From NCBI GenBank assembly GCA_044222185.1, contig JBGANV010000007.1:32001-96000 (forward strand): a stretch of 64,000 nt of DNA. The letters are read 5' to 3'. This DNA is from Planctomycetota bacterium. Its GTDB lineage: Bacteria; Planctomycetota; GCA-002687715; CAIWVZ01. A program made the position numbers and the translations under genes. Every line of letters begins with the position of its first letter. The first letter of the stretch is position 1. Positions 1,726 to 49,026 of the stretch are shown here, piece after piece. Under the pieces are notes generated by a model that worked only from the letters and a program-made list of their open reading frames with translations, did not search any database and was not told the DNA's origin.

Positions 1726-4700
1726 ATGTTGGATTCGTTCAGTCGACCCACATCGCAGCGCCACGGACGGCGCTGTTCCGTCAGCATGCTGTCGATCGCC
1801 ACGTTCCTCGTCGCCGCAACGCTGGCTCGAGGGCAAGCGTTCACGCCGATTTCCGGAACGCTGTTCGACGGCTCAGGCGGACCCCTCCTCGCCAACACCA
1901 CGTACGTCGTCACGGGAACCATCACGGTGCCCGTCGGGCAGACGTTGACGATCAACTCGGGCGCCGGAGTGAAGTTCAACAGCGGTCTCGAGATGGTCGT
2001 GAACGGGACGCTCAACGTGAACGGGACGGCACCTGCGCCGGTTCGTTTCACCTCATTTCGCGACGACTCGGTCGGAGGAGACACGAACGGCAACGGGGCC
2101 TCGTCGGGCGGTGCGGCGGACTGGCGCGGCCTGACCTTCAACTCGACCGCCACGGTCACGATGACTCAGGCGTCGGTGCGTTACGGCGGCTCGGCATTCT
2201 TCCCCGGGATCGGGAACCTCGGCGCCAACATGACGCTGTCGAACGTCACCGTCGGCAACTGCTACGACGCCGGCCTGAGCCTCAACGGCCAGGCGGCCAC
2301 GGTCTCCGTCTCGAACTGCACGTTCACGGCCAACGGTGGCTACGCCGTCCAGGCGGCCCGACTCGACCAGTTGAACGGGTTCACGAACAACTCGGCGAGC
2401 GGAAACGGCGTGAACACGATCCGGATCAGTGTCGGCACCCTCGCCGTGAATCGCACGATCACGGCTGCCAACTGCATGAACGGCGCCGTCTTCGTCGACA
2501 CCTCGATCCAGGTGAGCACGGGTGTGACGCTGACTTTGCAGGCGGGAACCGCGTTCAAGATGAACGGCGGCACCGGCGTGACCGTGGACGGCACGCTCAT
2601 CACGAACGGCACGGCGGGCTCGCCCGTCTACTTCACGTCGTTCCCCGATGACTCGGTCGGAGGCGACACGAACAACAACGGCGTGAGCTCTGGTTCCCCG
2701 ACACAGTGGCTCGGGGTCACGCTCAACTCGACGGCGTCCGCGAGCAGCCTGACGCGGCTCGTCACGCGATACGGCGGTGGGTCCTTCTTCCCTGGCATCC
2801 GTCTTTCAGCCTGCAACGCAACCCTGAACGCGTGCCGCATCGAGAACTTCTACGACCACGGCCTGAACTGCTCGAACAACAGCCTTCCGACGGTCACCGG
2901 TTGCACGTTCACCGGCAACGGCAACGTGGCCGTCACCGGCGTTCAGCTGCAGGCGATCCCCGGCTTCACGAACAACTCGGCGAGCGGAAATGGAGGGAGC
3001 TTCATCCAGATCACCGATTCGACGATGACGGGCAGCAAGACGATCATTCCCGCGAACTGCATGAACGGCGCGCTCGTGGTGAACACGCCGCTCTCCGTAC
3101 CGGCGGGTGCGACTCTCACGATGGCCGCCGGGACCTGCATGAAGTACCAGTCGAACTACCGGTTCCAGATCGACGGGACGCTGCTGGTGAACGGATCGAG
3201 TGGCACCCCCGTGATCATGACCTCCATCCAGGACGACTCCGCGTTCGGTGACACGAACAACAACGGCCCGTCTGCGGGCTCGCCGACCCAATGGGCCGGC
3301 GTCCTCTTCATGTCGACGTCGGATGCCAGCGTGATCCACGGACTCGAAGTCCGCTACACGGGCGCGTCCTTTCTGGCGGGCATCGAACTTCGCGACGCCG
3401 ACATCGTTCTGGAGAGCAGCAAGGTCACGTCGACCTACGCCGACGGAATCAACCTCAACGCCGGCGGTGCGAACGCCACGATCAACGCGTCCATCAGCAA
3501 CTGCACCCTCACGTCGTGCAACGGGTATGCGATCAACAACGTGGCGCTCGACGCGGTGCCGCATCTGCTGAACAACACGGGGAGCGCGAACGGCTCGACC
3601 TCTGTCCACGTGACCGTGGGCACGCTTGCGGCCTCGACGCTCACGGTTGGTCCGGCGAACGGGATGAGCGGCGTTTTGTTCTTCTCCGACAGCCTCACGG
3701 TGCCGGCGGGGCGTACGCTCGCGATGCAGGCGGGTCTGATCTGCAAGTTCTCCGGCGGTTTGAACGCCAGCATCACCGGGACGCTGCTTGCTGCGGGTAC
3801 CGCGGCGAGCCCGATCTACTTCACCTCGGCTCAGGACGACTCCGTCGGCGGCGACACGAACGGCAACGGCCCGTCGAGCGGGAGCCCCACGAACTGGCAG
3901 GGCATCTACTTCAACACGGGATCGTCCGGAAGCCTCCTGACCCAGGTGACGACCCGATTCGTGGGGGCCAGCTTCGTCGCGGGTGCGGTATTCGCCGGGG
4001 GATCGCCGACGCTGTACACCTGCACGTTCAGTGACGGATTCGCCGCCGGCCTGAACTTCACCGACTCGTCGTCGCGGCCGACTGTCGTCGAGTGCCATCT
4101 CGTCAACAACGGTGGCTATGCCGTCGACAACGTGCCCGTGGATGCGCTCCAGGGCTTCGCGAACAACTACGCGACCGGCAACCACACGGACGTGATTCGC
4201 GTGACGAACAGCACGCCGGTCGGAGATCTCTTCATCGGGCCGCAGGCCGGAATCGCCATCTTCATGGCGGCGGGCCTGTCGATCCCAGGGGGACGCAGCG
4301 TCGACGTCCTGCCCGGGACGATCATCAAGATGGGCGGTGGCACGGGCGTCGACGTCACCGGCTCGCTCGACGTCCGCGGCACCGGATACGAGCCCGTGGT
4401 CTTCACCTCCTACGGCGACGACAGCTACGGCGGTGACTCGAACGGGAACGGCCCGAGCACCGGCAGCCCGACCGATTGGCGCGGCCTGACGTACACGGCG
4501 GGTGCGACGGCATCGTCGGTCGAGAACGTGATCATCCGCAACACCGGAAGCGGGTTCTTCGCTGCGCTCAGCCTCCAGTCGCCGAACGTCTCGGCTCGCG
4601 CGGTGCGCGTCGAGCGCTGCTTCGACCACGGCATCACGGCGTCGGCGCTCTCGGGTGCGGGCATGAACTGGGTTGCGAACGCCTGCAACAACGCGGGCAT

Positions 4701-5403
4701 CCGCCTCACCGGTGGTGGATTCGACGTCGTGCACGCGACCGTGACGGCGTGCGGCACGGGTGTGAACGGAACCGGTTGGACGGGCAACGTGCGCAACTCG
4801 ATCGCGTGGGGCAACACGACGAACTTCGCGGCCATTCCCCAGGCCCGCGTCTTCAACTCGGACGGCGCCTTCGCCGGCATCAACGGCAACCTGAACGTGG
4901 ATCCCCAGTTCGTCGCACCTGCGACGGGGGACTACCACCTCCAGGGCAGCTCGCCCTGCATTGGCAACGGTGACGTCGCCGTCGCCATCGCCACCGAGAA
5001 GGACTGGGACGAGCAGCCTCGCCTGATCGACTCCACGTTGAGCGGGACGGCAGCACCGGAGATGGGTGCCTTCGAGCGCCCGATCTGGCAGATGACCGTG
5101 AACGGCGTGTCGCGGCTCGGCGCGACCGTCACGTTCCAGGTGAACGGCGCACCGGGAACGTCGTTCTACGTGCTCGGAGCTCTGGATGGGTCGTTCTACC
5201 TCGGCAACTACGGGATGGGCCTCGCGGGGTTGAGCCCGCTGATCCTCGTCGCCCTTCCGGTCGGGACGCCGTTCTCCGTGACGATCCCGCAGGATCTCAA
5301 CCTCCTCGGCCTCATGGCGGGCATCCAGACGCTGACGGCGCTCGGCAGCAACCCGGCGCTCGGCAGCACGACGAACCTCTACCGCGCCGTCGTCCGGCCG
5401 TGA
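1726..5403 (+). CDS. Large secreted right-handed beta-helix repeat protein (5 modules) with choice-of-anchor-Q-like segment and C-terminal putative sorting domain
   Basis: Signal peptide; five ~195-200 aa repeats each with FTSxxDDSxGGDTNxNG...W; GNLNVDPQFV..DYHLQGSSPCIGNG..DWDEQPR..EMGAFE near the C-terminus; strong GC3 bias. Confidence 0.85.
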   Translation: MLDSFSRPTSQRHGRRCSVSMLSIATFLVAATLARGQAFTPISGTLFDGSGGPLLANTTYVVTGTITVPVGQTLTINSGAGVKFNSGLEMVVNGTLNVNGTAPAPVRFTSFRDDSVGGDTNGNGASSGGAADWRGLTFNSTATVTMTQASVRYGGSAFFPGIGNLGANMTLSNVTVGNCYDAGLSLNGQAATVSVSNCTFTANGGYAVQAARLDQLNGFTNNSASGNGVNTIRISVGTLAVNRTITAANCMNGAVFVDTSIQVSTGVTLTLQAGTAFKMNGGTGVTVDGTLITNGTAGSPVYFTSFPDDSVGGDTNNNGVSSGSPTQWLGVTLNSTASASSLTRLVTRYGGGSFFPGIRLSACNATLNACRIENFYDHGLNCSNNSLPTVTGCTFTGNGNVAVTGVQLQAIPGFTNNSASGNGGSFIQITDSTMTGSKTIIPANCMNGALVVNTPLSVPAGATLTMAAGTCMKYQSNYRFQIDGTLLVNGSSGTPVIMTSIQDDSAFGDTNNNGPSAGSPTQWAGVLFMSTSDASVIHGLEVRYTGASFLAGIELRDADIVLESSKVTSTYADGINLNAGGANATINASISNCTLTSCNGYAINNVALDAVPHLLNNTGSANGSTSVHVTVGTLAASTLTVGPANGMSGVLFFSDSLTVPAGRTLAMQAGLICKFSGGLNASITGTLLAAGTAASPIYFTSAQDDSVGGDTNGNGPSSGSPTNWQGIYFNTGSSGSLLTQVTTRFVGASFVAGAVFAGGSPTLYTCTFSDGFAAGLNFTDSSSRPTVVECHLVNNGGYAVDNVPVDALQGFANNYATGNHTDVIRVTNSTPVGDLFIGPQAGIAIFMAAGLSIPGGRSVDVLPGTIIKMGGGTGVDVTGSLDVRGTGYEPVVFTSYGDDSYGGDSNGNGPSTGSPTDWRGLTYTAGATASSVENVIIRNTGSGFFAALSLQSPNVSARAVRVERCFDHGITASALSGAGMNWVANACNNAGIRLTGGGFDVVHATVTACGTGVNGTGWTGNVRNSIAWGNTTNFAAIPQARVFNSDGAFAGINGNLNVDPQFVAPATGDYHLQGSSPCIGNGDVAVAIATEKDWDEQPRLIDSTLSGTAAPEMGAFERPIWQMTVNGVSRLGATVTFQVNGAPGTSFYVLGALDGSFYLGNYGMGLAGLSPLILVALPVGTPFSVTIPQDLNLLGLMAGIQTLTALGSNPALGSTTNLYRAVVRP

Positions 5404-5434
5404 TCGGCGACCGCGCGCGTCGCGCGCGACGTGT

Positions 5435-7401: not shown

Positions 7402-7418
7402 CGTGCACCCCACACGTC

Positions 7419-13824: not shown

Positions 13825-16431
13825 TCACTGCACGGAAATCCGGGCGACGCGGCTCCAGCAGCCCAACGTGCCGCCCGTCCAGTCGAAGCACACGGCGTCG
13901 AGCGAGAGTCCGGGTGGCAGCAGAATCCCACCGAAGGTCCGCGCGCCCACCGGTGAAAGGAAGTGGATCGGGACCGCTCCGACGGGAAGGCTGAATTGAA
14001 ACAGGAGCAACGATGGATCGGGCGCACACAGCCCGAGGTACGGGCCCCCGCCGGGAAGTCCACCGCAAGGCGTGTCGCTGAAGATGTTGTAGTACTCGTG
14101 CGACTTCACCAGCGACGTGTTCTGCACCGTGACCGGCCCGCCAGGGCTCCCTTGCGTCATGCTGATCGTCGGCCGGAGGGGACCCCACTTGGCGATCCCT
14201 CTCGATGGCACTCCACCGACACCTCCGAACGTCCCGCCGACGAACAACGCCGACCCGGATCCGTCATCGTGTGCGACCAACGCCTGGCCGCCGACGCTCG
14301 ACGTGTTCTGGAAGGTGCCTCCGAGCGGAGTCCAGATTCCGGGCCCCAGCATCTTCAGGACGCCGGTCGCAGAAGTCGCAAACAGCGCCGGACCACTTCC
14401 ATCGTCCCAGATCGTCAACGCGGCGACGGAGGTCGGAGACGCGGGACCAACCGACGACCACGACGTTCCATTCCACTTCATGACCCCCGTCGCGGATGAG
14501 CCGTTGAGGCTCCCGATCGCGCCACCGAGGAAGAGAGCCGGGCCGCTGCCGTCGTCGAAGATGCGGAGCGCGCTCCTCGCGTTCGAAACGCCACCCGTGG
14601 TCGCGATCACCTGCCACGACGTCCCGACGCGCTCGAATACCGAATTCGGGGTCGTGATGCCGCCGCCCCAAGGCCGCACGACTCCGAACAGTCGTGGACC
14701 GGTGCCGATGTCGCCGAACGCAAGCGCCTTCACCTCGATCCCGGTAGGCGCGCCCAGGTCCGACCACGCCGTACCGTTCCAAGCCGCCATCGAGTTGGCG
14801 GGTACGCCGCCCGCCGACGTGAAGATGCCGCCGACCACGAGCTTCGGACCACTGCCGTCGTTCATGACGGTGAAGGCGTGCGCCACTGGGAGTGGCGGCA
14901 ACGGGAGCGGCGGGCCGCCGGTGAGGCCTCCGAGCACGCTACCCCACGACGATCCGTTCCACCGCGCGACGGTTCCGGGCACTCCACCGCCGGCGTAGAG
15001 CTCTGGGCCGTTGCCGGAATCGAAGATCGCGAGCGCCTCCACGGATCCCAACGCTGCCGATCCAAGCGGCAACCACTGGCCGTTCAGGAACGCCGCGACG
15101 CCGCTCGCCGCGACGCCGCCGATGCGAAGGAACGAGCCGCCGGCGAACAGTGCATGCGCGCCCAAGAGGTCACCGGATACGAGAGCCGACAGCGATCCCG
15201 TCGGCGCGACGCCGTTCCCGGGAAGGGAAGACCAGGCCGTTCCGTCCCAACGCAAGATTTCAGAATGCGTCGTGCTGCCGGGCGTGGACATGGCCGCATG
15301 GAGCGCGGGCCCCGTCCCATCATCGAAGACCAGGCCGCTGTAGCCCTGCGCCGCGCCGAACCCCGAGCCGGCCGGCGACCACGCTCCACCGCGATACCGG
15401 GCCACGCCGCCCGTCGACGTTCCGCCCGCCGAGGTCACCTGCCCGAATGCGAACAACGCGGACCCGCCTCCGTCATCCCACGCGGTGAGCGCCGACAACC
15501 CCGTGGAACCCAGACCCGAGCCGGGCGTCGACCACGCGGAACCATTCCACTTCGCGATGTGGTTCGCCGGCATCCCTCCGGCCACGCTGAAGAATCCTCC
15601 GACGAACAGCGCAGGGCCGAAACCATCGTCGTAGACGACGGCATCTCGAGCGACGGACGACGGTCCCGAGATGCCCGCTCCCAAGGCGGTCCATGCCGTC
15701 CCGTTCCACCGTGCCACGTTCGATGCGATTCCCATCCCCGTGAAGGTGAATCTTCCGACGGCATAGAGACCCGGGCCCGAGCCATTGGTCCAGGATCGAA
15801 GCGCATGGATGTCGCCGAAGGCTCCCTGTCCCACGTCCACCCACGCCGTGCCGGTCCATCGTGCGAGGCTGTTGAGCACCACGGAGCCGGACGCGCCGAA
15901 CGTGCCACCGGCATGGAGCGCCGGACCCGCTCCGTCATCGAAGACGCACAGCGTGCGCACCGCGCCATTCAACCCGGCTCCGACCGGCGCCCAGTTCGTT
16001 CCGTTCCACCGTCCGATGTTCGCGAGCGCAATCCCGTTCGTCGTGCTGAAGGCCCCCGAGAACCCGACGTAGAGCGCCGGTCCCGATCCGTCGTCGAACG
16101 CCGCGAGCGCGAGCGGCACCGGAGGCATCGTTCCGGATTGCCACGTGGGGAGAAACGGCACGGCGGACCACGCAACCCCGTTCCATTGCATCAAGCTGCC
16201 GTGGTCCGAAGCGGCGTTGGCGCCAGCGAAGAGCCGCGGTCCCGATCCATCGTCGAAGGTGCCCAGTGCCCCGGAGAATCCGGATGGCTGGAGATAGGGC
16301 GATCCGAATCCCTCGGACCACCCGGCGACGCACTGCGCCACGGCCGCCGAACCGGTGAAAAGCAAAATGCCCGCGAAGACGGCGTGAGTCACGAACTTTG
16401 AGCTGGGCAATGGCGAGCTCGATCTGGTCAT
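13825..16431 (-). CDS. Secreted beta-propeller repeat protein (about 14 WNG/FDDGSGP blades) with Cys-containing C-terminal domain
   Basis: Signal peptide ending AVA|QC; repeats ALxxFDDGxGPALYxGG.F....ANxIARWNGxxW; CTD HEYYNIFS..PC..GGGPYLGLC. Confidence 0.85.
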   Translation of the reverse strand: MTRSSSPLPSSKFVTHAVFAGILLFTGSAAVAQCVAGWSEGFGSPYLQPSGFSGALGTFDDGSGPRLFAGANAASDHGSLMQWNGVAWSAVPFLPTWQSGTMPPVPLALAAFDDGSGPALYVGFSGAFSTTNGIALANIGRWNGTNWAPVGAGLNGAVRTLCVFDDGAGPALHAGGTFGASGSVVLNSLARWTGTAWVDVGQGAFGDIHALRSWTNGSGPGLYAVGRFTFTGMGIASNVARWNGTAWTALGAGISGPSSVARDAVVYDDGFGPALFVGGFFSVAGGMPANHIAKWNGSAWSTPGSGLGSTGLSALTAWDDGGGSALFAFGQVTSAGGTSTGGVARYRGGAWSPAGSGFGAAQGYSGLVFDDGTGPALHAAMSTPGSTTHSEILRWDGTAWSSLPGNGVAPTGSLSALVSGDLLGAHALFAGGSFLRIGGVAASGVAAFLNGQWLPLGSAALGSVEALAIFDSGNGPELYAGGGVPGTVARWNGSSWGSVLGGLTGGPPLPLPPLPVAHAFTVMNDGSGPKLVVGGIFTSAGGVPANSMAAWNGTAWSDLGAPTGIEVKALAFGDIGTGPRLFGVVRPWGGGITTPNSVFERVGTSWQVIATTGGVSNARSALRIFDDGSGPALFLGGAIGSLNGSSATGVMKWNGTSWSSVGPASPTSVAALTIWDDGSGPALFATSATGVLKMLGPGIWTPLGGTFQNTSSVGGQALVAHDDGSGSALFVGGTFGGVGGVPSRGIAKWGPLRPTISMTQGSPGGPVTVQNTSLVKSHEYYNIFSDTPCGGLPGGGPYLGLCAPDPSLLLFQFSLPVGAVPIHFLSPVGARTFGGILLPPGLSLDAVCFDWTGGTLGCWSRVARISVQ

Positions 16432-16533: not shown

Positions 16534-16562
16534 GGAACTTCGTGCGCAGGCCGAGACGTCGA
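16534..16562 (+). promoter_or_regulatory. Candidate ECF-sigma promoter (GGAACTT-N16-CGTCGA) upstream of the FG-GAP gene
   Basis: ggaactt 16534-16540, 16-nt spacer, cgtcga 16557-16562, 39 nt before ATG 16602; matches generic ECF AAC/CGT consensus. Confidence 0.35.
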
Positions 16563-28363: not shown

Positions 28364-28463
28364 GTCTCCACTCCCTTCGAGCGACCCGCGGCGGGTCCTG
28401 ACCGCCGCGGCGCCGCGGCTCCTCAGGTGGGGAACGTGCTGCACCGGCGATTCGCAACGAGGC

Positions 28464-32685: not shown

Positions 32686-35400
32686 ATGCTCGACTCACTT
32701 CGCCGGCGTCCGGTCGGACTCGTGTCAGTCGCTCTCCTCCTCGCATTCCAACTCGCCCCGGCCCAGGCCCCGAACCTGGACCCTGCGCAGCCGCTGCCGG
32801 GGAGCCCCATCGTCGGCCCCGCTCCGGGAAGCCAGAAGGCGGCCGTGGTGGCCCTCGGCCTGGGCTCGTCGCTGATGGTCTTCGAAGACGACCGCGCTGG
32901 CGACAGCGACCTCTTCGCGGTGCGACTCGGACCGGGCGCGGTCCCGCTCGACTCGGTGCCGTTCCCCGTGACGAAGGCGCCGGGCAATCAGACGGTCCCC
33001 AAGGTCGTCTGGAATGGCGCCAACTGGCTCGTCGTCTATCTGAACCAGGTCGACCCCGGCAGCGGGTACTTCGCCTACCAGTTCGCGGCCCAGCGCGTGT
33101 CGCCGGCGGGACAGGTGCTCGACGCCACGCCGATCGTCCTCGGATCCGATGACACCGGCGGGAACTTCGGCGTCGCGAGCGACGGCAACAACTGGGTCGT
33201 CTCCTACACGGGATACTCCAGCGGCTCGAACGGGATCACCGCGAAGCGCATCAGTCCGGCGGGAGTGATCCTCGACCCGGCTGGCGTCACCGTCTTTCCG
33301 GCGACCTACTACATCATCTTCGGCGTCTCGACGACGTTCGGGCAGAACGAGTACGTCTTCACCTGGATCGACAACGGCCTGAAGGCCCGACGGTTCACGC
33401 CCCAGATGCAGCCCATCGACGCAGCGCCGATCTCCACCGTGTTCGCGGACGGCACCCTCACGTCGAATGGCTCACAGTTCTTCATCGTTCGGACGCGGCA
33501 GACGTCGCTCTACACGTCGGAGGTCGTGGCGAACCGCCTGAACGCGTCGCTCGCACCGCTCGAGGCGAATCCGATCAGCGTCTCGGGCTTCGGCGCGAAC
33601 GTCAACTACACCGAACCGCAGGCCGCGTGGGACGGCTCGCAATGGATCGTTTCGTGGCTCACCCTCGCGACACAGACTCCGAAGGCCGCGCGCGTGACGA
33701 CGTCTGGTGTGGTGCTCGATCCGGCGGGCGTGACGATTCCCGAGAACGATCCGAGCTACCTCTACGGATTCACGCTCGGCGGGCTGCCGGGAGGCGGAGC
33801 GCTCCTGGCCTGGCACGACGTGCGGTTCAACGGGACGAACGACGTCTTCGGCACTGCGGTCAGCGGTACGGGTGCTCCGGGAACCGAGCAGTGCTTCAGC
33901 ATCGGCGCCGAAGCGCTGCGCAACCCGCGCGTGACCGCCGGCTTGGACCAGCTTCTCGTCACCTATCGCGCGGAGCTCGCGGCGACGTCGCGCGTGCTGG
34001 TCCAGCGACTGGATGCGGTCGGTGCGGCAATCGACGGCGAAGGCATCGAGGTGGCGTCCGCCGTGCACACGGGCCTCTATGCGGGTGGGGTGGCCTGGAA
34101 CGGGAGCGTCTATCTCGTGACCTGGTCCGATGCCCAACAGGGAAAGGTGTTCGCGCGGCGATTCCTGCCGAGCGGTGGCTGGCTCGACGCAGCTCCGATA
34201 TTCGTGATGAACGGATGGGGGAGTGATGCGGCCGCGCTCGGGTCGGACTTCCTCGTGACGGGTCTGCGATCGCCCGGATACCCGCAGTACGTCTCGTCGT
34301 ACGCGGCTCGGGTTCGCGGCTCGGACGGGTTGGTTCTCGACAATCCCGCGCCAGCGGTGGCGGGGACGTACGCGACTCGTGCGCGCGTCGTCACGCTCGG
34401 GGGGCGATACCTCATCGCCACCGAGTCGCACGTTTCTCACGACTCGAACCAGGCGGGCATCGTCCTCAATTTCGTCGACACGGCAGGCGTCGTCACCGCT
34501 CCGCTCAACGTCGGACCGCTCAACATCCAGGACTGGGGGAGCATCGACATCGCGAGCGCGGGCACGAGCGCGCTCGTGATCGGCCAGACTGGCAGCAACT
34601 GGACGAACACGGACGTCTACGCGCGGCGCGTTCTGCCCGACGGGTCCATGCCAGCGCCGATGTTCAACGTGACGGCCACGGCGCCCTTCGGCCAGTCGCG
34701 CGCGTCGGTGATGTGGACCGGCACCGAGTACGCGGTGAGCCATCTCACGTTCCAGAACAACGTGTGGAGCTACGACCTGGAGCCGGATGTGTACGTCAGC
34801 CGGATCACCGAGGCCGGAGTCCTGGTGGGGTCGGCGGCCGCGCCGCTGTGGAATGGCGAGGACTACGAGGTGTCGGTCGACGGCGACGGCACCGGCGGCG
34901 GGCGCGGCGTGTTCGCCGCGTCGACGTACGTGGATGGCTCGTACGCGGCGTTTCGCATCAGTCTCCGGACCTTGCGCGCGGCCGGTGTGACGCCATTTGG
35001 CGTGGGCACGCCGGGTTGCACCGGTCCCGAGCAGCTCGACGCAATCTCGCGGCCGTTCATCGGCAACGCCGCGTTCGGGTTCGTCTGCACGCATGCGCCG
35101 GCAGGCGCGAGCGGGTTGCTCGTGGCGAGCACGGTGGCAGTTCCAGGCGGGGCGGATCCGTTCGGGGTCGGCGTGGTCCTGCACGTCGGCATGGCGTCGC
35201 CGACGGCCTACCTGACGCTTCCGATGAATGCGGATGCGGCCGGTGTGGGTCGCACGCCCGTCGCGCTGCCCGCGTCGCCTTCCCTCGTCGGCAGCACGTT
35301 CCACTTCCAGGCGGCGTTCGTCTGGAACGGACCGTGCACGCCGTCACCCCTCGGGATCAGCACGTCGAGCGGATTGAGCCTGCAGATCCAGGCGCCGTGA
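32686..35400 (+). CDS. Secreted beta-repeat protein (PxVxWNGxxxLVxWxDxR...AxRVxxxGxxLD repeats) with C-terminal putative sorting domain
   Basis: Signal APA|Q; about 12 repeats; CTD FGVGTPGCTGP...LPASPSLVGSTFHFQAAF...STSSGLSLQI. Confidence 0.85.
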   Translation: MLDSLRRRPVGLVSVALLLAFQLAPAQAPNLDPAQPLPGSPIVGPAPGSQKAAVVALGLGSSLMVFEDDRAGDSDLFAVRLGPGAVPLDSVPFPVTKAPGNQTVPKVVWNGANWLVVYLNQVDPGSGYFAYQFAAQRVSPAGQVLDATPIVLGSDDTGGNFGVASDGNNWVVSYTGYSSGSNGITAKRISPAGVILDPAGVTVFPATYYIIFGVSTTFGQNEYVFTWIDNGLKARRFTPQMQPIDAAPISTVFADGTLTSNGSQFFIVRTRQTSLYTSEVVANRLNASLAPLEANPISVSGFGANVNYTEPQAAWDGSQWIVSWLTLATQTPKAARVTTSGVVLDPAGVTIPENDPSYLYGFTLGGLPGGGALLAWHDVRFNGTNDVFGTAVSGTGAPGTEQCFSIGAEALRNPRVTAGLDQLLVTYRAELAATSRVLVQRLDAVGAAIDGEGIEVASAVHTGLYAGGVAWNGSVYLVTWSDAQQGKVFARRFLPSGGWLDAAPIFVMNGWGSDAAALGSDFLVTGLRSPGYPQYVSSYAARVRGSDGLVLDNPAPAVAGTYATRARVVTLGGRYLIATESHVSHDSNQAGIVLNFVDTAGVVTAPLNVGPLNIQDWGSIDIASAGTSALVIGQTGSNWTNTDVYARRVLPDGSMPAPMFNVTATAPFGQSRASVMWTGTEYAVSHLTFQNNVWSYDLEPDVYVSRITEAGVLVGSAAAPLWNGEDYEVSVDGDGTGGGRGVFAASTYVDGSYAAFRISLRTLRAAGVTPFGVGTPGCTGPEQLDAISRPFIGNAAFGFVCTHAPAGASGLLVASTVAVPGGADPFGVGVVLHVGMASPTAYLTLPMNADAAGVGRTPVALPASPSLVGSTFHFQAAFVWNGPCTPSPLGISTSSGLSLQIQAP

Positions 35401-35958: not shown

Positions 35959-36266
35959 GCATCGTCGTCGATTGCTTGCTGCGAACGAAGCGAGCCGCCG
36001 ATCTCTGCAGGGCTGGAGCCCTGCCAACCGGCCGCGTGGAACGCGGCGTTCCGTGCGCAGGACGGTGAGTTCGAGCGAACAGGAGCGCCAAGCTCCGCTT
36101 GGCCGGACCGGCAAGGCTCCAGCCTTGCCGCGAACGTCGACGGACGATCACGCGCCCCGACGCGTTGCGGCATCGTCGTCGATTGCTTGCTGCGAACGAA
36201 GCCAGCCGCCGATCTCTGCAGGGCCGGAGCCCTGCCAACCGGCCACGTGGAACGCGGCGTTCCGTG
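35959..36266. repeat. REP/BIME-like cluster: two 97-bp direct repeats (35959-36055, 36170-36266) plus an inverted central palindrome
   Basis: Three mismatches between copies; hairpins gcagggct-gg-agccctgc, ggaacgc-g-gcgttcc, cggcaaggct-cc-agccttgccg. Confidence 0.9.
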
Positions 36267-36332
36267 TTGCCGCCCGCAGCACGGCACTCGGCCCGGTATA
36301 GTCCTGCCTCGAACGTCGAGGAGGTCCGCGCC

Positions 36333-39300
36333 ATGTTCATGTCGTCGCGCCGGGGCATGCCCGGGTTGGTGTCGCTGGTCGCGTGGTTGGTGACGGTTTC
36401 GGGCGCGGCCCAGACCGACGTGGGCGAAACGCTGTTGCTCCAGCAGCCGACGATCTCCGCAGATCACGTCGTGTTCGTCTACGCGCAGGACCTGTGGATC
36501 GTGGGGCGCGACGGCGGCGTGGCGCGGCGTCTGACCAGCCACGTGGAGAGCGAGCGCGCGCCGGCGCTGAGTCCCGACGCGAAGCTCGTCGCGTTCACGG
36601 GTCAGTACGACGGCAACGACGACGTGTACGTCATTCCGATCGAGGGCGGGATCCCGCGGCGGCTGACGTTCCACCCGGGCCGTGACGTGGTGCAGGGGTG
36701 GCATCCCGATGGCAAGCGCATCCTCTTCACGAGTGATCGGGATGGCGGCGCGCCGGTCGAGCGGGCGTTCCTCGTCAGCGCGGATGGCGGCAACCCGGAA
36801 CCGCTGCCCATGCCGAAGGTGGCGCGGGCCCGCCTGAGCGGCGATGGAACGCACGTGGCCTACACCCCGATCCGCGACGCGTTCCGCACGTGGAAGCGCT
36901 ACCGCGGCGGACAGACGACGCCGATCTGGATCTTCGACCTTTCGACGTTCGCGACGGAGCAGATCCCGCACGAAAACGCCAGCGACACCTTCCCGTGCTG
37001 GGTCGGCGCGGACGTCTACTTCATGAGCGATCGCGACGGTCACATGAATCTCTGGCGATTCACGCCCGGCGGAAGCGCGCCGCAGCAACTGACGCGGTTC
37101 ACCGATTTCGACGTGAGGTCCGTGTCGTCGGGCGCGGGCGTCGTCGTCTTCGAGCAGGCCGGTGCCATTCACGTCTGGGATCCGGCGAAGGGCAGTGACA
37201 CGCGACTGCGCGTCACCGTTCCCGCGGATGGTCTGGGCGCCCGGCCCCGGTGGTCCGAGGCGAAGGGGTTCGTTCGCGGGGCGGCGATCGCCCCCAACGG
37301 CAAGCGCGTGGCGGCCGAGGTCCGCGGCGACATCGTGACGTTCCCGAGAGAGTTCGGTGATCCGCGCGCCGTCACCGATTCGCCGAGTGCGCACGACCAG
37401 AGCCCGGCGTGGTCGCCCGACGGAACCCAGCTGGCGTGGCTGTCGGACGAGAGCGGCGAATACCGCCTCTTGATGCGTGACGAGCGTGGCGTGGAGTCGC
37501 CGCGAGCTTTCGACCTCGGGCCCGGCGGGTTCTTCTTCGAGCTCACCTGGAGCCCCGACGGAAAACACATCTCGTTCCACGACCGTTCTGGCCGCATCGC
37601 GTTCGTGACGCTCGAGACGGGCGTCGTCACGACCATTGGCTCCTGGCCCGCGGCATTCGGCGGGTCGCGTGGGACGGCGTCGTGGTCGCGGGACAGTCGC
37701 ACGATCGCGCTCGCGACGCGTGATCCGGCCACGCTGTACGACTCGATCCAGCTCTACGATCTGCAGACCGGCAAGCTCACCGCGATCACGGACGGGTTCG
37801 GGTCGGCCGACCAGCCTGCGTTCTCGATGGACGGCAAGTACCTGTTCTTCCGCGCCACGGTTGACGGCGGCATGCGCCGCTTCGGCCTCGACATGAGCTC
37901 GCGTGCGAGCCGCGATCCGACGATGAGCCTCTACGCCGTCGTGCTCCAACGTTCGCAGAAGAACCCGCTGGCGCCGAAAAGCGACGAGGCGAGCGACGAC
38001 AAGAAGGCCGCGGCGGAATCCAAGCCGACGGCGGAGAGCCGACCCGCTGTCGAGCTCGACGGCATCGACCAGCGCATCGTGGCGTTGCCGCTGCCTCCGC
38101 GAACCTACAGCGGGCTTGCGTGCACGAAGACCCGGCTCCTGTTCCTCGAAGCCAGCGAGCCCGGCGCCTCCGATGCGACGCTGCGCAGCTTCGACTTCGA
38201 GTCACGCAAGGCGGAGGACGTGGTGGCGAAGCTGTCGTCATTCGCCGTGTCCGCGAGCGGCGAGCATCTGCTCGTGCGCATGGGCGACGAGATCTCGATC
38301 GCGAGCGCCGAGGGCAAGGACAAGAAGGTCGTCGGGTTCGACAAGGTAAAGGTGCGGGTGGAACCCACCGTCGAATGGAGGCAGATGCTCCGCGAGGTGT
38401 GGCGGATCCATCGCGACTACTTCTACGACCCGAAGATGCACGGCGTCGATTGGAATGCCATGTGGGAGCGGTGGCAGGCATTCCTCCCGCACGTGCGGCA
38501 GCGGGACGATCTCAACCTCGTCATCGCCGAGATGATCGGCGAGCTGGCGTGCGGTCACGAGAACGTCAACGGCGGCGACAGGCCCACGGCGCCGGAGAGC
38601 CCGGGCACCGGTCTGCTCGGCGCCGACTTCTCCGTGGAAGAAGGGCGCCACCGGATTCGCACGATCTACCGCGGACAGAACTGGAACCCGACGTTGCGGG
38701 CGCCGCTCACCGAGCCCGGGGTCGATGCGAAGGTTGGCGACTACCTGCTTGCCGTCGATGGGCGCCCGCTCGCGGGGACGCAGGATCTGTATGCCGCGTT
38801 CGTCGGCACGGCGAATCGTCAAACGGTGCTGACCTTGTCGTCGACGCCTGACGGAGCCGGCGCGCGGAAAGTCACCGTGGTTCCCATCGCGAGCGACACC
38901 ATGCTGCGTCGCCGCGCGTGGGTCGAGGCCAACCGACGCCGTGTGGATGCGCTCTCGAACGGGCGCCTCGCGTACGTTCACATGCCGGACACCGGCTCAT
39001 CGGGCAAGGAGGCGTTCGATCGCGACTTCTACTCCGAGCTCGGCCGCGACGGCGTGATCCTCGACGAGCGATACAACACCGGCGGCATGGCGGCCGATTA
39101 CGTCATCGCCACGTTGTCGCGGCAGGTCATCGGTCATTGGATGACGCGCGAAGGCTGGGCGGCGCGCACGCCGTTCGCGACGATCCCGGGTCCCAAGGTG
39201 ATGATCGCCAATGAGAACGCTGGCTCGGGCGGCGATTGGATGCCGTGGGCGTTCCAGCGGCTGAAGGTGGGGCCCGTCGTCGGCATGCGCACGTGGGGCG

Positions 39301-39563
39301 GTGCCGTGGGCATCGGTCCCGGCATCGTGTTGATGGACGGCGGCACGGTCACGCCACCAGCGTTCGGAGCCATGGACGCGGACGGGCATTGGGCCATCGA
39401 GAACGAGGGCGTGGCTCCGGATTACGAAGTGGTGGAATGGCCGAAGGACGTCATCGCGGGTCACGATCCGCAGCTCGAGAAGGCCGTCGCGCTCGCTCTC
39501 GCCGAGTTGGAGAAGAATCCGCCGAAGCCCCGGCCTTCGTTCACATCACCCAAGCCTCGCTGA
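36333..39563 (+). CDS. Tricorn protease homolog (S41 family), exported
   Basis: PD40-type propellers, WKRYRGG, EWRQMLREVWR..RDYFYDPKMHGVDW, GELACGH, PDZ, DERYNTGG, NENAGSGGD (catalytic Ser), RTWGG, IENEGVAPD, DPQLEKA. Confidence 0.95.
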   Translation: MFMSSRRGMPGLVSLVAWLVTVSGAAQTDVGETLLLQQPTISADHVVFVYAQDLWIVGRDGGVARRLTSHVESERAPALSPDAKLVAFTGQYDGNDDVYVIPIEGGIPRRLTFHPGRDVVQGWHPDGKRILFTSDRDGGAPVERAFLVSADGGNPEPLPMPKVARARLSGDGTHVAYTPIRDAFRTWKRYRGGQTTPIWIFDLSTFATEQIPHENASDTFPCWVGADVYFMSDRDGHMNLWRFTPGGSAPQQLTRFTDFDVRSVSSGAGVVVFEQAGAIHVWDPAKGSDTRLRVTVPADGLGARPRWSEAKGFVRGAAIAPNGKRVAAEVRGDIVTFPREFGDPRAVTDSPSAHDQSPAWSPDGTQLAWLSDESGEYRLLMRDERGVESPRAFDLGPGGFFFELTWSPDGKHISFHDRSGRIAFVTLETGVVTTIGSWPAAFGGSRGTASWSRDSRTIALATRDPATLYDSIQLYDLQTGKLTAITDGFGSADQPAFSMDGKYLFFRATVDGGMRRFGLDMSSRASRDPTMSLYAVVLQRSQKNPLAPKSDEASDDKKAAAESKPTAESRPAVELDGIDQRIVALPLPPRTYSGLACTKTRLLFLEASEPGASDATLRSFDFESRKAEDVVAKLSSFAVSASGEHLLVRMGDEISIASAEGKDKKVVGFDKVKVRVEPTVEWRQMLREVWRIHRDYFYDPKMHGVDWNAMWERWQAFLPHVRQRDDLNLVIAEMIGELACGHENVNGGDRPTAPESPGTGLLGADFSVEEGRHRIRTIYRGQNWNPTLRAPLTEPGVDAKVGDYLLAVDGRPLAGTQDLYAAFVGTANRQTVLTLSSTPDGAGARKVTVVPIASDTMLRRRAWVEANRRRVDALSNGRLAYVHMPDTGSSGKEAFDRDFYSELGRDGVILDERYNTGGMAADYVIATLSRQVIGHWMTREGWAARTPFATIPGPKVMIANENAGSGGDWMPWAFQRLKVGPVVGMRTWGGAVGIGPGIVLMDGGTVTPPAFGAMDADGHWAIENEGVAPDYEVVEWPKDVIAGHDPQLEKAVALALAELEKNPPKPRPSFTSPKPR

Positions 39564-41414: not shown

Positions 41415-43907
41415 ATGAGGACGAGACCCTCGGTGCTCGTGGCCTTGGCGTTCGCGATGCTCGGGTCGGTCGAATCGGCCGCACAATGTCCACCGGCGCA
41501 GTGGTCGGGAATGGCGCTGCCTGGGGGACTGGGCGCAACGGCCATCTATGCGACGTTCCGCTGGGATCCCGACGGTGGTGGACCGGCGTCGCCGCTGCTC
41601 GTCGCGGGCGGCGACATCACGATGGCCAGCGGCGCGCTGGCGTCGCGCGTGGCGGCGTGGAACGGTTCCACGTGGGTTCCGATGGGCGCGAACCTCGTTG
41701 GTGGCCGAGTCTGGAGCTTCGCGGAGTACCAGGGAAGCCTATATGCCGGTGGCAATCAGACGAGCCTGAGTACGGCGACCAGCCCCAATATCGGCCGATG
41801 GGGCGGCACCGCTTGGCAACCGGTCGGCAGCGGACTGAACGGCAACGTCCGCGCCCTCGCCGTGTTTGGTGGAGAGCTCATCGCCGGCGGCGATTTCACG
41901 ACGGCAGGTGGAGTCGCGGCGCCCTACCTCGCCCGGTGGAATGGGACGGCATGGGCGGCGTTCGGTCCACCCGTGAACGGAGAGGTGGACGCGCTGCGGG
42001 TTGCGAACGGCGAACTCGTCGCTGGCGGGAACTTCACGACGGCGGGCGGGCTCACGGTAAACCGGATCGCGCGGTGGAACGGCGTGTCGTGGCAGCCTTA
42101 TGGTGTCGGATTGGGCGCGACGGTCTACGCGCTTGCCGAATTCGGTGGTCAGCTCGTCGCGGCGGGCCAGTTCAATTCCTCGGGCAGCGCGTCGATTGGC
42201 ACCGTCGCCCGGTGGGACGGCACGTCGTGGCTGCAGCTCGGCGCCGGTGTCTGGAGCGCCGTTCGCTCACTCGAGGTGCTCGGGAGCGAACTCGTCGCCG
42301 GTGGGGATTTCGTTGCGGCCGGCGGCGTCTCCGCGGGCCACATCGCCGCATGGGACGGCTCGTGGGCGTGGCGCTCGCTCGGCCTGGGACTGTCTGCGAC
42401 GGTGCGGGCGCTGATCGTCGATGGGGGCACCCTCGTGGCGGCCGGCGACTTCGACGCAGCAGGCACGGTCGGATTGAACCGGATCGCGCGCTGGAGCGGC
42501 ACGACCTGGTCAGCGCTCACCCCTGAGGGTTTCAACGGGACCATCGCGAGTTTCAGCGAGTTCCAGGGCGATCTGGTTGTGGGCGGGGGGTTCACGATTG
42601 CCGGCGGTCCGTCGGCGAGGCGCGTGGCCCGGCGTATCGGAACGGGATGGCAGCCGTTGGGCGAAGGGATGACCGGATCTGGCCAGGTATTCGTACCGCC
42701 GCCCGCGGTGACGTCGCTCACGATCCACGGTGGGGATCTGATCGCCGGCGGGAACTTCGAGTTCGCGGACTCGAACCCGGCGCTGAACGTTGCCGCGTGG
42801 AATGGGACGTCGTGGCGCGCACTCGGCGGCGGCGTCGGCGCGGGGATCATTCCGGCGATTCCCGTGAATGCCGTGACGACCTACTTGGGCGAGGTCATCG
42901 CAGCCGGTCAGTTCACGGCGGCAAGCGGAGTTCCCGCATCGAACATCGCAGCCTGGAATGGAACCTCATGGCGGGCGCTCGGTTCGGGGCTCAATGGCCC
43001 CGTGCGATCGATGCGTGTCGTCGGGGGACTGCTCGTCGTGGGGGGGAACTTCAGTGCGGCCGGAGGGCTCTCATGCCGGGGGATCGCCACTTGGGACGGC
43101 GCGAGCTGGCAGCCGTTCGGGTATTGGACTGCATGCTCGACGGAGACTTCCGTAGCCGTTTACGCCGTCGGTGAGTATCAGGGGAACGTGGTTGCCGGGC
43201 ACGTGTTCTCCTGTGGACCGTTCGGTCCCACGCAGTTCTGGACCGTCCTACGGTGGACGGGTTCGGCATGGGTTCCGCTGGGTGGAGCATTCACGAATTT
43301 CGTTGGGGCGGCATGGCTGACCACCATCGAGGAGTTCGGTGGCGATCTGGTGGTCGCTGGTGATTTCACCAGTGCCGGTGGCGTCGCCGTCGAACGGATC
43401 GCCGCCTGGAACGGAACCAGTTGGCGCGCACTCGGCACGGGATTGGACGGGACCGCGGGCAGGCTCCATGCCTGGCGTGATCAACTCCTGGTTGCGGGTA
43501 CGTTCCGCATGGCGGGAGGGATCACCTCGCCGTACTTCGCGCAGTGGTCCGTGGCGCGACCTTACCTCCGTCTTCTGCCGAGCACGGCGTCGTCGTCCGT
43601 GACGGTGATCGACGAAGACCTCATCGCGGGGCACGAGTACTTCAATCTCTACAGCACGGAGCTCTGCGGGGGCGGTGTCGGAACAGGCCCATGGATTGGA
43701 CTATGCGCGACCGATCTGACGTCGCTCCTCGATCAGATCGCGTTGCCGATTGGCGCGCAGCCGTTCCATTTCGTCGCAGTGGGTCCTGAGATCGGATTCG
43801 GACCCTATGCCGTTCCGCCGGGATTCGCATTCGACGGTGTCTGCATCGACGTGACGCCAGCCGTCTTCGGATGTCACTCGGGTGTGCAGCGGTTCCTCGC
43901 TCCGTGA
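41415..43907 (+). CDS. Secreted beta-propeller repeat protein (about 14 WNG blades) with Cys-containing C-terminal domain
   Basis: GGAGG SD; signal SAA|QC; repeats VxAL..F.GxLVAGGxFTxAGG....IARWNGTSW..LG; CTD HEYFNLYS..LCGGGVGTGPWIGLC. Confidence 0.88.
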   Translation: MRTRPSVLVALAFAMLGSVESAAQCPPAQWSGMALPGGLGATAIYATFRWDPDGGGPASPLLVAGGDITMASGALASRVAAWNGSTWVPMGANLVGGRVWSFAEYQGSLYAGGNQTSLSTATSPNIGRWGGTAWQPVGSGLNGNVRALAVFGGELIAGGDFTTAGGVAAPYLARWNGTAWAAFGPPVNGEVDALRVANGELVAGGNFTTAGGLTVNRIARWNGVSWQPYGVGLGATVYALAEFGGQLVAAGQFNSSGSASIGTVARWDGTSWLQLGAGVWSAVRSLEVLGSELVAGGDFVAAGGVSAGHIAAWDGSWAWRSLGLGLSATVRALIVDGGTLVAAGDFDAAGTVGLNRIARWSGTTWSALTPEGFNGTIASFSEFQGDLVVGGGFTIAGGPSARRVARRIGTGWQPLGEGMTGSGQVFVPPPAVTSLTIHGGDLIAGGNFEFADSNPALNVAAWNGTSWRALGGGVGAGIIPAIPVNAVTTYLGEVIAAGQFTAASGVPASNIAAWNGTSWRALGSGLNGPVRSMRVVGGLLVVGGNFSAAGGLSCRGIATWDGASWQPFGYWTACSTETSVAVYAVGEYQGNVVAGHVFSCGPFGPTQFWTVLRWTGSAWVPLGGAFTNFVGAAWLTTIEEFGGDLVVAGDFTSAGGVAVERIAAWNGTSWRALGTGLDGTAGRLHAWRDQLLVAGTFRMAGGITSPYFAQWSVARPYLRLLPSTASSSVTVIDEDLIAGHEYFNLYSTELCGGGVGTGPWIGLCATDLTSLLDQIALPIGAQPFHFVAVGPEIGFGPYAVPPGFAFDGVCIDVTPAVFGCHSGVQRFLAP

Positions 43908-46783: not shown

Positions 46784-46893
46784 CACGCAACCGACACGGC
46801 CGTCGCATTTGCCCCAATGCCGACGGGATGCTGTAGGATGCCCGCGCCCGTATCCTCACGGGAACGTTCGGGCCACCTATCGGAGGGATGCCA

Positions 46894-49026
46894 ATGACTT
46901 CGTCTTCGTCTGATGCTGAAGCAGCTCGGGGTGTTCGGCTGTTGTTCGCGGTGAGTCTGCTCGTCGTCGGAGTTCGCGCACAGTACGTGTGCTCTGCCGC
47001 CGAGTTCGGACCAAGCTCTCAGGATCCGATGGTCATCTCTGGCGCATGGACGATCGGACCAGGGTGCACTCTGAATTTCGGTCCGCGACACGTCATTCTG
47101 AGCCCGACCGCAAACCTTGCGATCAGCAACGCGACGATTTCATGCGCGAAATTCACGGCGCAGCCTGGAAGTCAAATCGTCGGGCTCGGCGCGACGCTGA
47201 ATCTGTCGACGACATCGTCGGGCCCGAACAATGGTGACGTCCGGCTGGATGGAACCGTCGACGTCCATGGACTTGCGGCGGGAGGATCCGTGGCCATCAA
47301 TGCGTCCGGCGCACTCACATCGAGTGGAAATGGGAACATCGACGCAAGCGCCACGGCAGCTGGTGGAAGCGGTGGAACGGTGTCATTGACGGCGGCGTCT
47401 GCAATATCGATAGCCGGTGCCGCGACATCGATTGATGTTGGGTGCACCGGTTCGCCATCAACGGGTGGAAGCCTCGCTATTCAATCGACTGGCGGTTCCG
47501 TCACTGTTTCTCGCGATCTGTCCGCAGCCGCAGTCGGTTTCAGTGGTGGTGCCGTGACGATCACCGCGTTCGGGGACATCTCGGTGGGCCCGGGTGCGAT
47601 CACCACGTCCAGCACTGCGTTCCAAACTAACCCGAGTTATTACACTGGAGTCGGTGGGCCTGTGGTACTCACCGCAGGTGGCCAGATCACGGTTGGTGGG
47701 TCGATAAGTGCGAGCGCATCCACCACCATATGGCCGTCGCCCTATTATCTTGCCGGGGCAGGTGGGAGCGTCACTCTGATCGCCGGAACCCACGTGCTAA
47801 TTACCCAGCCTGTCGAATCTCAGAACTTCAGTGCGATCGGACCCCCAGTTCCGCCGAGCACACTGAACATCACGGCGGGAGGAAACGTTACGATCGCGCA
47901 CAACTTGGATTTCTCGAGTCTGTGGGAATACGGACGCGGTGGGGCGATCGCGATCGCGGCAGGTGGCAACCTCGTCTTGATGACGGGAACCATCAGTGCC
48001 GCCGGAGGCGACTATCCTGGACAGAACGGGCCGGTGGGTTCCGCAAGCCTGTCGGGGAGCCAAGGGATCATTCTGCACGGGTCAATCGTGCTTCCCGGTG
48101 GCTACCTCCCGATGACCTCAGCGTTCGGATCAGTCACGCTGTTTGGGGGGATCAGTCTTCACCGCGCCGTAAGCGGACCGTCTCAGACGACCATCAATCA
48201 GAGCGGAACTCTGGAGGTGACTGCACATGGAGACATCACGCTATCGACCTACCTCGATCTTTCCGGAATTTTTGGTGGCCACCTTTACCTCACATCCGAT
48301 CGTGACGTGATCCTTACGCCGTCAGCGCACGTCAACGGCAATACGTTCTTCAGCTCCTACGACGGTGGAGGCTCGGGCGTTCGTGTGGGGCTGAGAGGGT
48401 GCCGTGTGACCGTACAGCCGGGTGCGACGCTCGTCGCAACGATCAATCCTACATATTACAGCTACTACTATTCGGAGATCGTGATGACTGCGGGAGATCT
48501 GCTCACGATGGGCGGCGCCATCACCACGAACTCTCTCGCACCGGTGTTCACGACGAGGTTGGCGTCAGCCTCGATCACGGGGACGATTTCAAGCGGGCCC
48601 GTCGTGCCTATCGTTGACCCAACTCTTGCCCCCTGCCTTGCCTCGGACCTCGCAACACTCACGGCTCCGGCGACGGTGTCGTTGGGCGGCGGTCTCACCG
48701 TGTCGGCCACCGGCCCCCCTTCGCGCCCACTCATCGTTGCGGTCGACACGCAGATCACGCACCTGTCGCTCGGAGGCTTGCTCGGGTGGACCCAGGTGAG
48801 CTTTTTGAATCCCACGCACTTCTTTCTTGCGGATCTCGGTGCATTCGGATCACCGATTGCGGGATCGACGACGGATGGCAATGGCGCATGGTCGTACTCG
48901 ACCACGATTCCGAACGTTCCCTCACTCCACGGGCTGGACGTCTTCATCGAGGCGTACATCCTCGATGCATCAGCACGCAACGGTGTGTTCCACCAACCTC
49001 CGTACAAGTCCGTGCATCTGAACTGA
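46894..49026 (+). CDS. Secreted Gly/Ser/Thr-rich beta-helix/adhesin-like protein with C-terminal putative sorting domain
   Basis: GGAGG then ATG 46894; signal VRA|Q; repeated GGxVxLxAGGxIxI units; CTD ...TDGNGAWSYSTTIPNVPSLHGLDVFIEAYILD; many A/T-ending codons. Confidence 0.8.
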   Translation: MTSSSSDAEAARGVRLLFAVSLLVVGVRAQYVCSAAEFGPSSQDPMVISGAWTIGPGCTLNFGPRHVILSPTANLAISNATISCAKFTAQPGSQIVGLGATLNLSTTSSGPNNGDVRLDGTVDVHGLAAGGSVAINASGALTSSGNGNIDASATAAGGSGGTVSLTAASAISIAGAATSIDVGCTGSPSTGGSLAIQSTGGSVTVSRDLSAAAVGFSGGAVTITAFGDISVGPGAITTSSTAFQTNPSYYTGVGGPVVLTAGGQITVGGSISASASTTIWPSPYYLAGAGGSVTLIAGTHVLITQPVESQNFSAIGPPVPPSTLNITAGGNVTIAHNLDFSSLWEYGRGGAIAIAAGGNLVLMTGTISAAGGDYPGQNGPVGSASLSGSQGIILHGSIVLPGGYLPMTSAFGSVTLFGGISLHRAVSGPSQTTINQSGTLEVTAHGDITLSTYLDLSGIFGGHLYLTSDRDVILTPSAHVNGNTFFSSYDGGGSGVRVGLRGCRVTVQPGATLVATINPTYYSYYYSEIVMTAGDLLTMGGAITTNSLAPVFTTRLASASITGTISSGPVVPIVDPTLAPCLASDLATLTAPATVSLGGGLTVSATGPPSRPLIVAVDTQITHLSLGGLLGWTQVSFLNPTHFFLADLGAFGSPIAGSTTDGNGAWSYSTTIPNVPSLHGLDVFIEAYILDASARNGVFHQPPYKSVHLN

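Follow-up and report, generated by a model that had tools for sequence, protein, structure and literature searches.

Two families of terminal beta-sandwich domains on secreted-type proteins of a planctomycete as candidate surface-address tags

The window analyzed here is a stretch of 64,000 nucleotides from a Planctomycetota bacterium (GenBank assembly GCA_044222185.1, contig JBGANV010000007.1, positions 32,001 to 96,000 of the forward strand; C2:32001-96000 in our contig numbering). It encodes seven secreted-type proteins, P0001 to P0007, with genes at 1726, 13825, 16602, 23077, 32686, 41415 and 46894, and each of them carries near its C-terminus a domain that falls into one of two families. 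Family A is found on P0002, P0004 and P0006, and family B on P0001, P0003, P0005 and P0007. Both families recur throughout the genome, one copy per protein and at a terminus, on passengers of many kinds. We propose A and B as interchangeable address tags, placed at the ends of Sec-exported proteins, which would dock their passengers to the cell surface; we give this reading a probability of about 0.4. The tag concept is already known, while the A and B domain families themselves appear to be undescribed.

A first-pass annotation of the window, made from its letters alone, had assigned one common tail domain to all seven proteins; profile comparison divides this domain into two. In pairwise blastp of the last 160 amino acids, P0002 and P0006 match at an E value of 1e-33 and P0003 and P0005 at 1e-3, with all other pairs at 0.04 or above. 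Iterated profiles were run against the whole genome (7,084,855 bases in 16 contigs, 67% G+C), represented by 40,487 six-frame stop-to-stop open reading frames (ORFs) of at least 90 amino acids. Profiles started from P0001, P0003, P0005 and P0007 gather 203-228 frames each, 182-203 of which are common (family B), and those started from P0002, P0004 and P0006 gather 78-84 each, 68-75 of them common (family A). The overlap between the A and B sets is 0-1 frames. Because the reversed-sequence controls returned no match with any of four models, the similarity among the tails lies far beyond chance.

The assignment of the window tails to these families was also examined with leave-out profiles, built from paralogues only and with the window's own rows excluded. 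Six of the seven tails are recovered, at E values of 1e-8 to 7e-23 with the seed models and 3e-13 to 2e-26 with the full models. The individual values (seed, then full) are 2.5e-22 and 1.6e-26 for P0002, 2.3e-16 and 3.4e-13 for P0003, 3.3e-13 and 3.1e-22 for P0004, 3.3e-17 and 3.2e-14 for P0005, 6.5e-23 and 4e-26 for P0006, and 1.2e-8 and 7e-13 for P0007. The tail of P0001 is the weakest of the seven, with leave-out values of 5e-3 (seed) and 4.5e-5 (full); it reaches 4.6e-10 with a seed profile that contains P0001 itself. Leave-out scores across the two families are not significant (E 13 to 310). An hhalign comparison of A with B gives a probability of 33% with the 44- and 42-row alignments and 57% with all members, collinear over 88-98 columns, and a remote common origin of the two families is possible rather than established.

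For conservative counts we use single-pass seed profiles made from the family alignments A1 and A2. These place B in 177 frames of this genome and A in 84, in keeping with the many matches that the first-pass annotation had named as support for its proposal. The iterated unions are larger, with B in 257 frames (211 C-terminal) and A in 90 (89 C-terminal); together they comprise 345 members, dispersed over the genome at about one per 20 kb. A carrier frame always holds one A or B domain, tandem copies are absent, and by the single-pass profiles A and B never occur together. All 84 A domains found by these profiles end within 10 amino acids of the stop codon. The same is true of B in 150 of 177 frames, the remaining 27 having the domain elsewhere. 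The expectation that the tail would always be C-terminal therefore stands for A and falls for B, and the B copies in other positions go some way towards what the first-pass annotation had itself named as evidence against its proposal, namely matches inside proteins.

The exceptions follow a pattern of their own. Twenty-one of the 27 begin within about 30 amino acids of the end of a signal-peptide-like segment, that is, at the mature N-terminus, and a few others end 11-32 amino acids from the stop. Kelch-like propellers and a NIDO-like module (the likeness judged by eye) are among the parts that follow these N-terminal B domains. On contig C6 (644344-648694), outside the window, three tandem genes each consist of a signal peptide, an N-terminal B domain and a C-terminal module of about 230 amino acids, which is NIDO-like by eye, ends in Y and is common to eleven further frames. 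From these tandem genes it follows that B can head proteins as well as end them. B is a terminal module that is usually, but not always, C-terminal.

Signal peptides were called with our own unvalidated heuristic, applied to the first 120 codons of stop-to-stop ORFs rather than called genes. By this measure a signal-peptide-like start is present on 74 of the 89 carriers of A. For B the counts are 164 of 204 where the domain is C-terminal and 28 of 43 where it lies elsewhere, and among random long control frames 79 of 400 have such a start; this amounts to about 80% of carriers versus 20% of controls. The first-pass annotation had named a signal peptide on every carrier as support for its proposal, which describes the great majority and not all of them. 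Members are only slightly clustered, with 45% having another member within 5 kb compared with 38 +/- 3% at random placement. A recurrent genomic neighbor of the tails was considered and set aside, as this clustering is weak and the other genes of the window are housekeeping or unrelated. The 25 amino acids that precede the tails match the passengers in composition and show no conserved linker, and the last residues are mixed, with no C-terminal aromatic rule.

The passengers are diverse, as the first-pass annotation had held in describing interchangeable passengers with a common terminal domain. Single-linkage clustering of the 289 passengers of at least 100 amino acids gives 98 clusters, 69 of which are singletons; one cluster has 142 passengers and is probably joined through repeats. 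Related passengers do not keep to one tail. Of the 284 pairs of passengers with strong similarity (E<=1e-30 across half or more of the shorter protein), 123 are A-A, 136 are B-B and 25 are A-B, and several passenger families are mixed for the tail, one of them with 11 B and 9 A. Choice-of-anchor domains are defined by their occurrence with alternative sorting signals. That homologous passengers take either tail follows the same logic. A choice-of-anchor-Z repeat is also present in P0004 of the window, where it fits the tag reading. Beyond this genome, relatives of P0003 with FG-GAP repeats occur at 52 loci in other phyla; their matches end at or before query residue 724 and leave the tail, residues 722-849, uncovered. 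Among 100 external B carriers there are 38 different Pfam passenger families (RCC1, FG-GAP, Kelch, immunoglobulin (Ig), astacin, matrixin and LamG among them), and none of them covers the tail.

A second regularity lies at the other end of the carriers. Among carriers with a signal-peptide-like start, 83-84% have an [AG]-Q motif within the 15 residues that end the hydrophobic core (A, 62 of 75; B, 163 of 193), versus 514 of 1446 (36%) other signal-peptide-like frames and 8-11% of random 15-mers. All seven window proteins have it. The Q-rule, which concerns pyroglutamate N-termini, is described by its authors as Bacteroidetes-specific, and the word Planctomycetes has no occurrence in the main text of their article (PMC5837995). 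The regularity in the tail carriers resembles this rule by analogy. A search of the genome for the plant-type glutaminyl cyclase (PF05096) gave nothing; the animal-type (type II) enzyme was not searched for.

Structure prediction was carried out with AlphaFold2 on paralogue alignments for one tail of each family, spanning 118-130 amino acids. The B tail of P0003 is modeled with a predicted local distance difference test (pLDDT) score of 93.8 as an all-beta domain of 10 strands, and the A tail of P0006 with a score of 95.8 as 9 strands and one short helix; by DSSP both models are beta-sandwiches (9-10 strands). The first-pass annotation had proposed a search for a common fold to set against known domains. 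Confident folds were obtained for both tails, and they are generic: a Foldseek search of the PDB has nothing at E<=1e-3 for either tail, the weak rows including chitin-binding, lytic polysaccharide monooxygenase (LPMO) and CBM21 proteins at TM scores of 0.4-0.5. In an exhaustive VIA search the closest entries to B are macroglobulin (MG) domains of TEP1r, CD109 and C5 (Z 8.8-8.3, root-mean-square deviation 2.9-3.1 Å over 98-101 residues), with Ig domains of the LILR type also present. Those closest to A are fibronectin type III (FN3) domains of neogenin and DCC (Z 8.4, 2.9-3.0 Å over 91-92 residues). Eleven of the best 50 entries are common to the A and B models. On these models the tails are Ig/FN3-like sandwiches of a generic kind, an assignment to fold class only, and such a fold carries little information on function.

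Sequence databases place the two families outside the named domains; a strong match to a characterized domain was what the first-pass annotation had named as refuting its proposal. Pfam and NCBIfam have no match to the seven window tails (last 108-140 residues) even at E<=10; at E<=0.01 they have none among 86 aligned tails (44 + 42), save one chance Pfam match to an unrelated family on 1 of the 44. In the PDB no sequence matches better than E 0.59. For each tail, all 30 of the nearest clusters in the ESM Atlas are "hypothetical protein" with no common Pfam family, Planctomycetota being the commonest phylum, and a word-based homologue search with the family alignment A2 returns 11 proteins, none of them named. 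A search of the literature by titles and abstract openings gave no description of the A or B tails.

The families are nonetheless widespread. Among 1.84 billion cluster representatives the B profile matches 26,993 at E<=1e-3 and 5,715 at E<=1e-10. Of the best 150 external B proteins, 149 are single-copy and 148 have the domain within 10 amino acids of the C-terminus, with one at the N-terminal end; in the best external tails two Cys, one Pro and one Gln are invariant or nearly so. The only tandem array among these 150 is in P0012, an external protein of 2030 amino acids in which nearly identical stretches match part of the B profile, its core at positions 27-111, eleven times in a row, each at about 2e-4; P0012 may belong among diverged Ig-like repeat proteins and not among the tag carriers. 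In the window's order A and B are both present in 22 of 22 sampled genomes, with 24-121 matches per genome for B and 4-55 for A. In an evenly spread sample of 151 genomes of the phylum, B is present in 34, near all-or-none by taxonomic family and usually in multiple copies. A is present in 15, all 15 also B-positive, and is abundant only in the window's order. As a pattern, this distribution agrees with the lineage-specific tag that the first-pass annotation had inferred.

Within the window, the members of A or B are exactly the seven proteins named above, a mild local excess. All seven genes are present as open frames whose translations contain the C-terminal strings quoted by the first-pass annotation, and the tail positions that it gave differ by no more than about 35 bases from the profile envelopes. 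The signal peptides that it had described are found on 7 of 7 as heuristic calls (positive start, hydrophobic core and small-x-small site), and translation probably begins at 1726 for P0001, 32686 for P0005, 41415 for P0006 and 46894 for P0007. P0001 (1726..5403, forward strand) is a secreted-type beta-helix repeat protein of 1225 amino acids (Pfam Beta_helix, 1e-17) with a divergent B tail (envelope 5053-5400). P0002 (13825..16431, reverse strand) is a secreted-type propeller-repeat protein with its A tail at 13828-14181; its ORF runs to 16746, with a likely ATG at 16431. P0003 (16602..19151, forward strand) is a secreted-type FG-GAP repeat protein (FG-GAP_3, 9e-65) with a B tail at 18765-19148, its ORF starting at 16542 and its likely ATG at 16602. 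P0004 (23077..26859, reverse strand, likely ATG 26859) combines an astacin domain, the choice-of-anchor-Z repeat (NCBIfam NF058597, 6e-12), FG-GAP and two lamin-tail domains (LTD) with an A tail at 23080-23430. P0005 (32686..35400, forward strand) is a secreted-type repeat protein with a B tail at 34990-35394. P0006 (41415..43907, forward strand; ORF from 41385) is a secreted-type propeller of the Rax2/DUF5122 type with an A tail at 43557-43904. P0007 (46894..49026, forward strand; ORF from 46888) is a secreted-type Gly/Ser/Thr-rich protein with a B tail at 48625-48990, an envelope that stops 11 amino acids short of the stop codon. Among these seven proteins Pfam and NCBIfam recognize passengers only. 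The passenger types proposed earlier find support in Pfam for Beta_helix, FG-GAP, Astacin with FG-GAP and LTD, and Rax2/DUF5122; the passengers of the other three (P0002, P0005 and P0007) have no Pfam match.

The remaining genes of the window encode regulators, kinases, a tricorn protease, transporters and metabolic enzymes, housekeeping or unrelated, with no secretion genes among them; the supposition that any machinery lies elsewhere agrees with this. The tricorn-type protease (36099-39563, forward strand), a HEAT-repeat protein (27074-28444, reverse strand) and a squalene-hopene-cyclase-like repeat protein (61295-63289, reverse strand; the prenyltransferase-repeat type of the first-pass annotation) have no A or B domain, as had been claimed for them.

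Comparison with known sorting systems sets the two families apart from each of them. The seven C-termini end in beta-strand sequence, without the hydrophobic transmembrane helix or basic tail whose absence the first-pass annotation had already remarked on. Searches of the genome for sortase (PF04203) and exosortase (PF09721), the controls of which were positive, gave no match. Of a signal of the PEP-CTERM, LPXTG or MYXO-CTERM type, both the C-terminal helix with basic tail and the enzyme are missing. The closest functional systems are the C-terminal domain (CTD) of the type IX secretion system (T9SS) and the dockerin-type tails; membership fails on sequence for both, and for the dockerins on fold as well.

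Like the T9SS CTD (TIGR04183/TIGR04131/PF18962 Por_Secre_tail), A and B are beta-sandwiches that end many unrelated Sec-exported proteins in single copy, the carriers numbering tens to hundreds per genome, and family A shares with it a strictly C-terminal position. In contrast, A and B tails have no sequence match to the curated CTD models, and they are 115-130 amino acids long with 9-10 predicted strands, whereas the CTD is described as a compact Ig-like sandwich of seven strands in a 3+4 arrangement (PMC11285876). The position that a CTD always takes is kept by A (84/84) and not by B, with 27 of 177 copies elsewhere and some of these at mature N-termini. No CTD chain is among the best 50 VIA rows of either tail, though the folds may still be alike. 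Dockerin tails, including the GC-type of Planctomycetota (NF041540), share with A and B the character of a modular tag on diverse secreted proteins, usually C-terminal and with a lineage-restricted expansion. They differ in being calcium-binding helical repeats, while A and B are all-beta apart from a single short helix in A. NF041540 matches neither the genome nor any tail, and no cohesin-like partner of the tails was identified. The pre-peptidase C-terminal (PPC) domain is a small beta-sandwich that closes the C-terminal end of a variety of secreted proteins; its part in their export or retention is unclear. A and B are like it in this placement and build, but no Pfam family, PPC included, matches the 86 tails, the copy number here is far higher, and there are two alternative families.

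The way in which A and B might act as address tags can be outlined from these comparisons. The carriers (propellers, FG-GAP proteins, beta-helices, proteases and proteins with lectin-like domains) would be exported by Sec, each bearing exactly one tag at the mature C-terminus or, in the B minority, at the mature N-terminus. The folded, Ig/FN3-like tag of about 115-130 amino acids would then dock onto a shared component of the cell envelope, and docking would hold the passenger at the cell surface, as a dockerin or an S-layer homology (SLH) domain does, or the T9SS CTD in its anchoring function. Three steps in this scheme are inferred: the carriers leave the cytoplasm, their tags all bind one partner, and the passenger stays at the surface. 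The reading is preferred over an Ig-like spacer or adhesin repeat because the domains are single-copy, terminal and mutually exclusive yet swapping alternatives, on hundreds of carriers with Sec-type starts, with a lineage-wide, all-or-none distribution. The roughly 345 members match, by analogy, the scale of known sorting and docking tags, and a docking module could be expected to sit at one or the other end of the mature chain. The reading also gains from the lack of matches in this genome to the common alternatives, namely the T9SS CTD, SprA, the GC-type dockerin, PEP-CTERM, sortase and exosortase, with weak negatives among them as given below. The presence of B at the mature N-terminus favors recognition of a folded module by a common partner, for B at least, and the 21 copies directly after the signal peptide argue against a threaded C-terminal signal of the T9SS kind for this family.

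Several observations weigh against tags of this kind. Export is read from a heuristic for signal peptides that is unvalidated. The Ig/FN3-like fold is generic: for both tails the Z values are close to what VIA itself gives as background for an arrangement this common. The tails have no motif that hints at a ligand, and no partner or export or anchoring machinery was identified among the systems searched. SprA (TIGR04189), the T9SS CTD (TIGR04183) and PEP-CTERM (TIGR02595) have no match in the genome; these are weak negatives, as the controls were silent too. A universal disulfide was rejected as a feature of the tails, since Cys is absent from many of them in this genome (68 of 211 in family B, 45 of 89 in family A). 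Finally, the C-terminal position of A (84/84) and of 148 of the best 150 external B proteins fits an export signal equally well.

This last point leads to the first and main alternative, in which the folded tail would be recognized by an outer-membrane pathway, undescribed or secretin-based, and perhaps removed later, as an analogue of the T9SS CTD or of the PPC domains of type II secretion substrates. We think this unlikely, although it accounts best of all for the strictness of A and agrees with the C-terminal majority of B (150/177) and with the signal-peptide-like starts. The 21 B domains at the mature N-terminus make a threaded C-terminal signal impossible there, and leave recognition of a folded domain possible. 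The tails are beta-sandwiches like the T9SS CTD, as far as that domain is described in PMC11285876, and the frequency of [AG]-Q among carriers (83-84%) recalls the Q-rule that accompanies T9SS cargo; yet neither a T9SS core gene nor the CTD model has a match here (controls silent). An outer-membrane route of the secretin type has eight genes to draw on in this genome. The usual range in the phylum is 2-13, and 150 of the 151 sampled genomes have at least one, so that secretins do not track the tails and were rejected as a tail-specific partner. A C25 peptidase as a PorU-like partner was also rejected: the 83 of 151 genomes that have it include only 22 of the 34 with B, as against 61 of the 117 without B. 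The first-pass annotation had looked to phylogenetic profiles for a co-occurring peptidase or translocon, and neither of these two candidates provides one. This genome has a Peptidase_C25 protein (gingipain/PorU family; C1:676846-679446, outside the window) that itself carries a family A tail, and a second C25 gene in a 1629-amino-acid frame (C1:2010016-2011137).

The second alternative is an ordinary end domain with no sorting role, either a carbohydrate-binding or adhesive Ig-like module that would direct its passengers to some substrate outside the cell, or a folding or stabilizing cap. The generic Ig/FN3/macroglobulin-like fold, the chitin-binding, LPMO and CBM21 proteins among the weak Foldseek rows, the ability of B to function at either protein end and the lack of machinery in the searches made would all agree with it. 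Some 345 copies per genome are, however, unusual for a binding module, and Ig-like spacers and adhesin repeats are normally tandem or internal where A and B are single and terminal. The passengers are mostly not carbohydrate-active enzymes, and mutual exclusion of A and B combined with swapping on homologous passengers is not what such a domain would lead one to expect. We regard this explanation, too, as improbable.

Binding of the A and B tails to each other or to themselves, which would give a surface protein mesh in cohesin-dockerin fashion, is a very improbable explanation. A is present only where B is present (15/15 genomes), and in some genomes a high count of B goes with a high count of A (121 and 55 in one, 93 and 51 in another). 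But the B:A ratio runs from about 2 to about 12 between genomes, 19 of the 34 B-positive genomes have no A, and this genome has no scaffold with tandem A or B domains. Prediction of an A-B complex with the family alignments A1 and A2 scored 0.03 against a mark of 0.32, which counts neither way for A-B binding. An artefact of low-complexity Gly/Pro/Ala composition at 67% G+C together with drift of the iterated profiles could explain fringe members at the most, in view of the Ala-rich N-terminal extension taken in by the iterated B models and the 34 of 257 B ORFs found by just one of four such models, and is refuted for the core families by the empty reversed-sequence controls, the 177 and 84 ORFs of the single-pass seed profiles, the recovery of window tails by leave-out profiles, tail models that fold at pLDDT >93 and the 26,993 external representatives, with 148 of the best 150 C-terminal.

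A broader form of the address-tag reading is more speculative and, in our judgement, somewhat doubtful. In this form, the two domains would mark the cargo of a planctomycete pathway, so far undescribed, for outer-membrane export, surface attachment or both, with several hundred proteins per cell to serve. The B system would be the older and phylum-wide one, and A a second address that joined it later at the level of the order. The unusually regular [AG]-Q signal-peptide ends would belong to this pathway too, just as pyroglutamate N-termini do in Bacteroidota.

How the proteins of planctomycetes reach and stay at their unusual cell surface is poorly understood. B, with about 27,000 cluster representatives, has neither a name nor a Pfam or NCBIfam model, and A and B together are on about one gene per 20 kb of this genome. 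If the tails are simple binding modules, they would be a useful but ordinary pair of new domain families; if they are export signals, they would reveal a new secretion route. The definition of A and B would provide an annotation marker for the secreted or surface proteome of these bacteria, would make a search for the receptor or translocon practical through the 34/151 presence pattern, and would offer handles for surface display.

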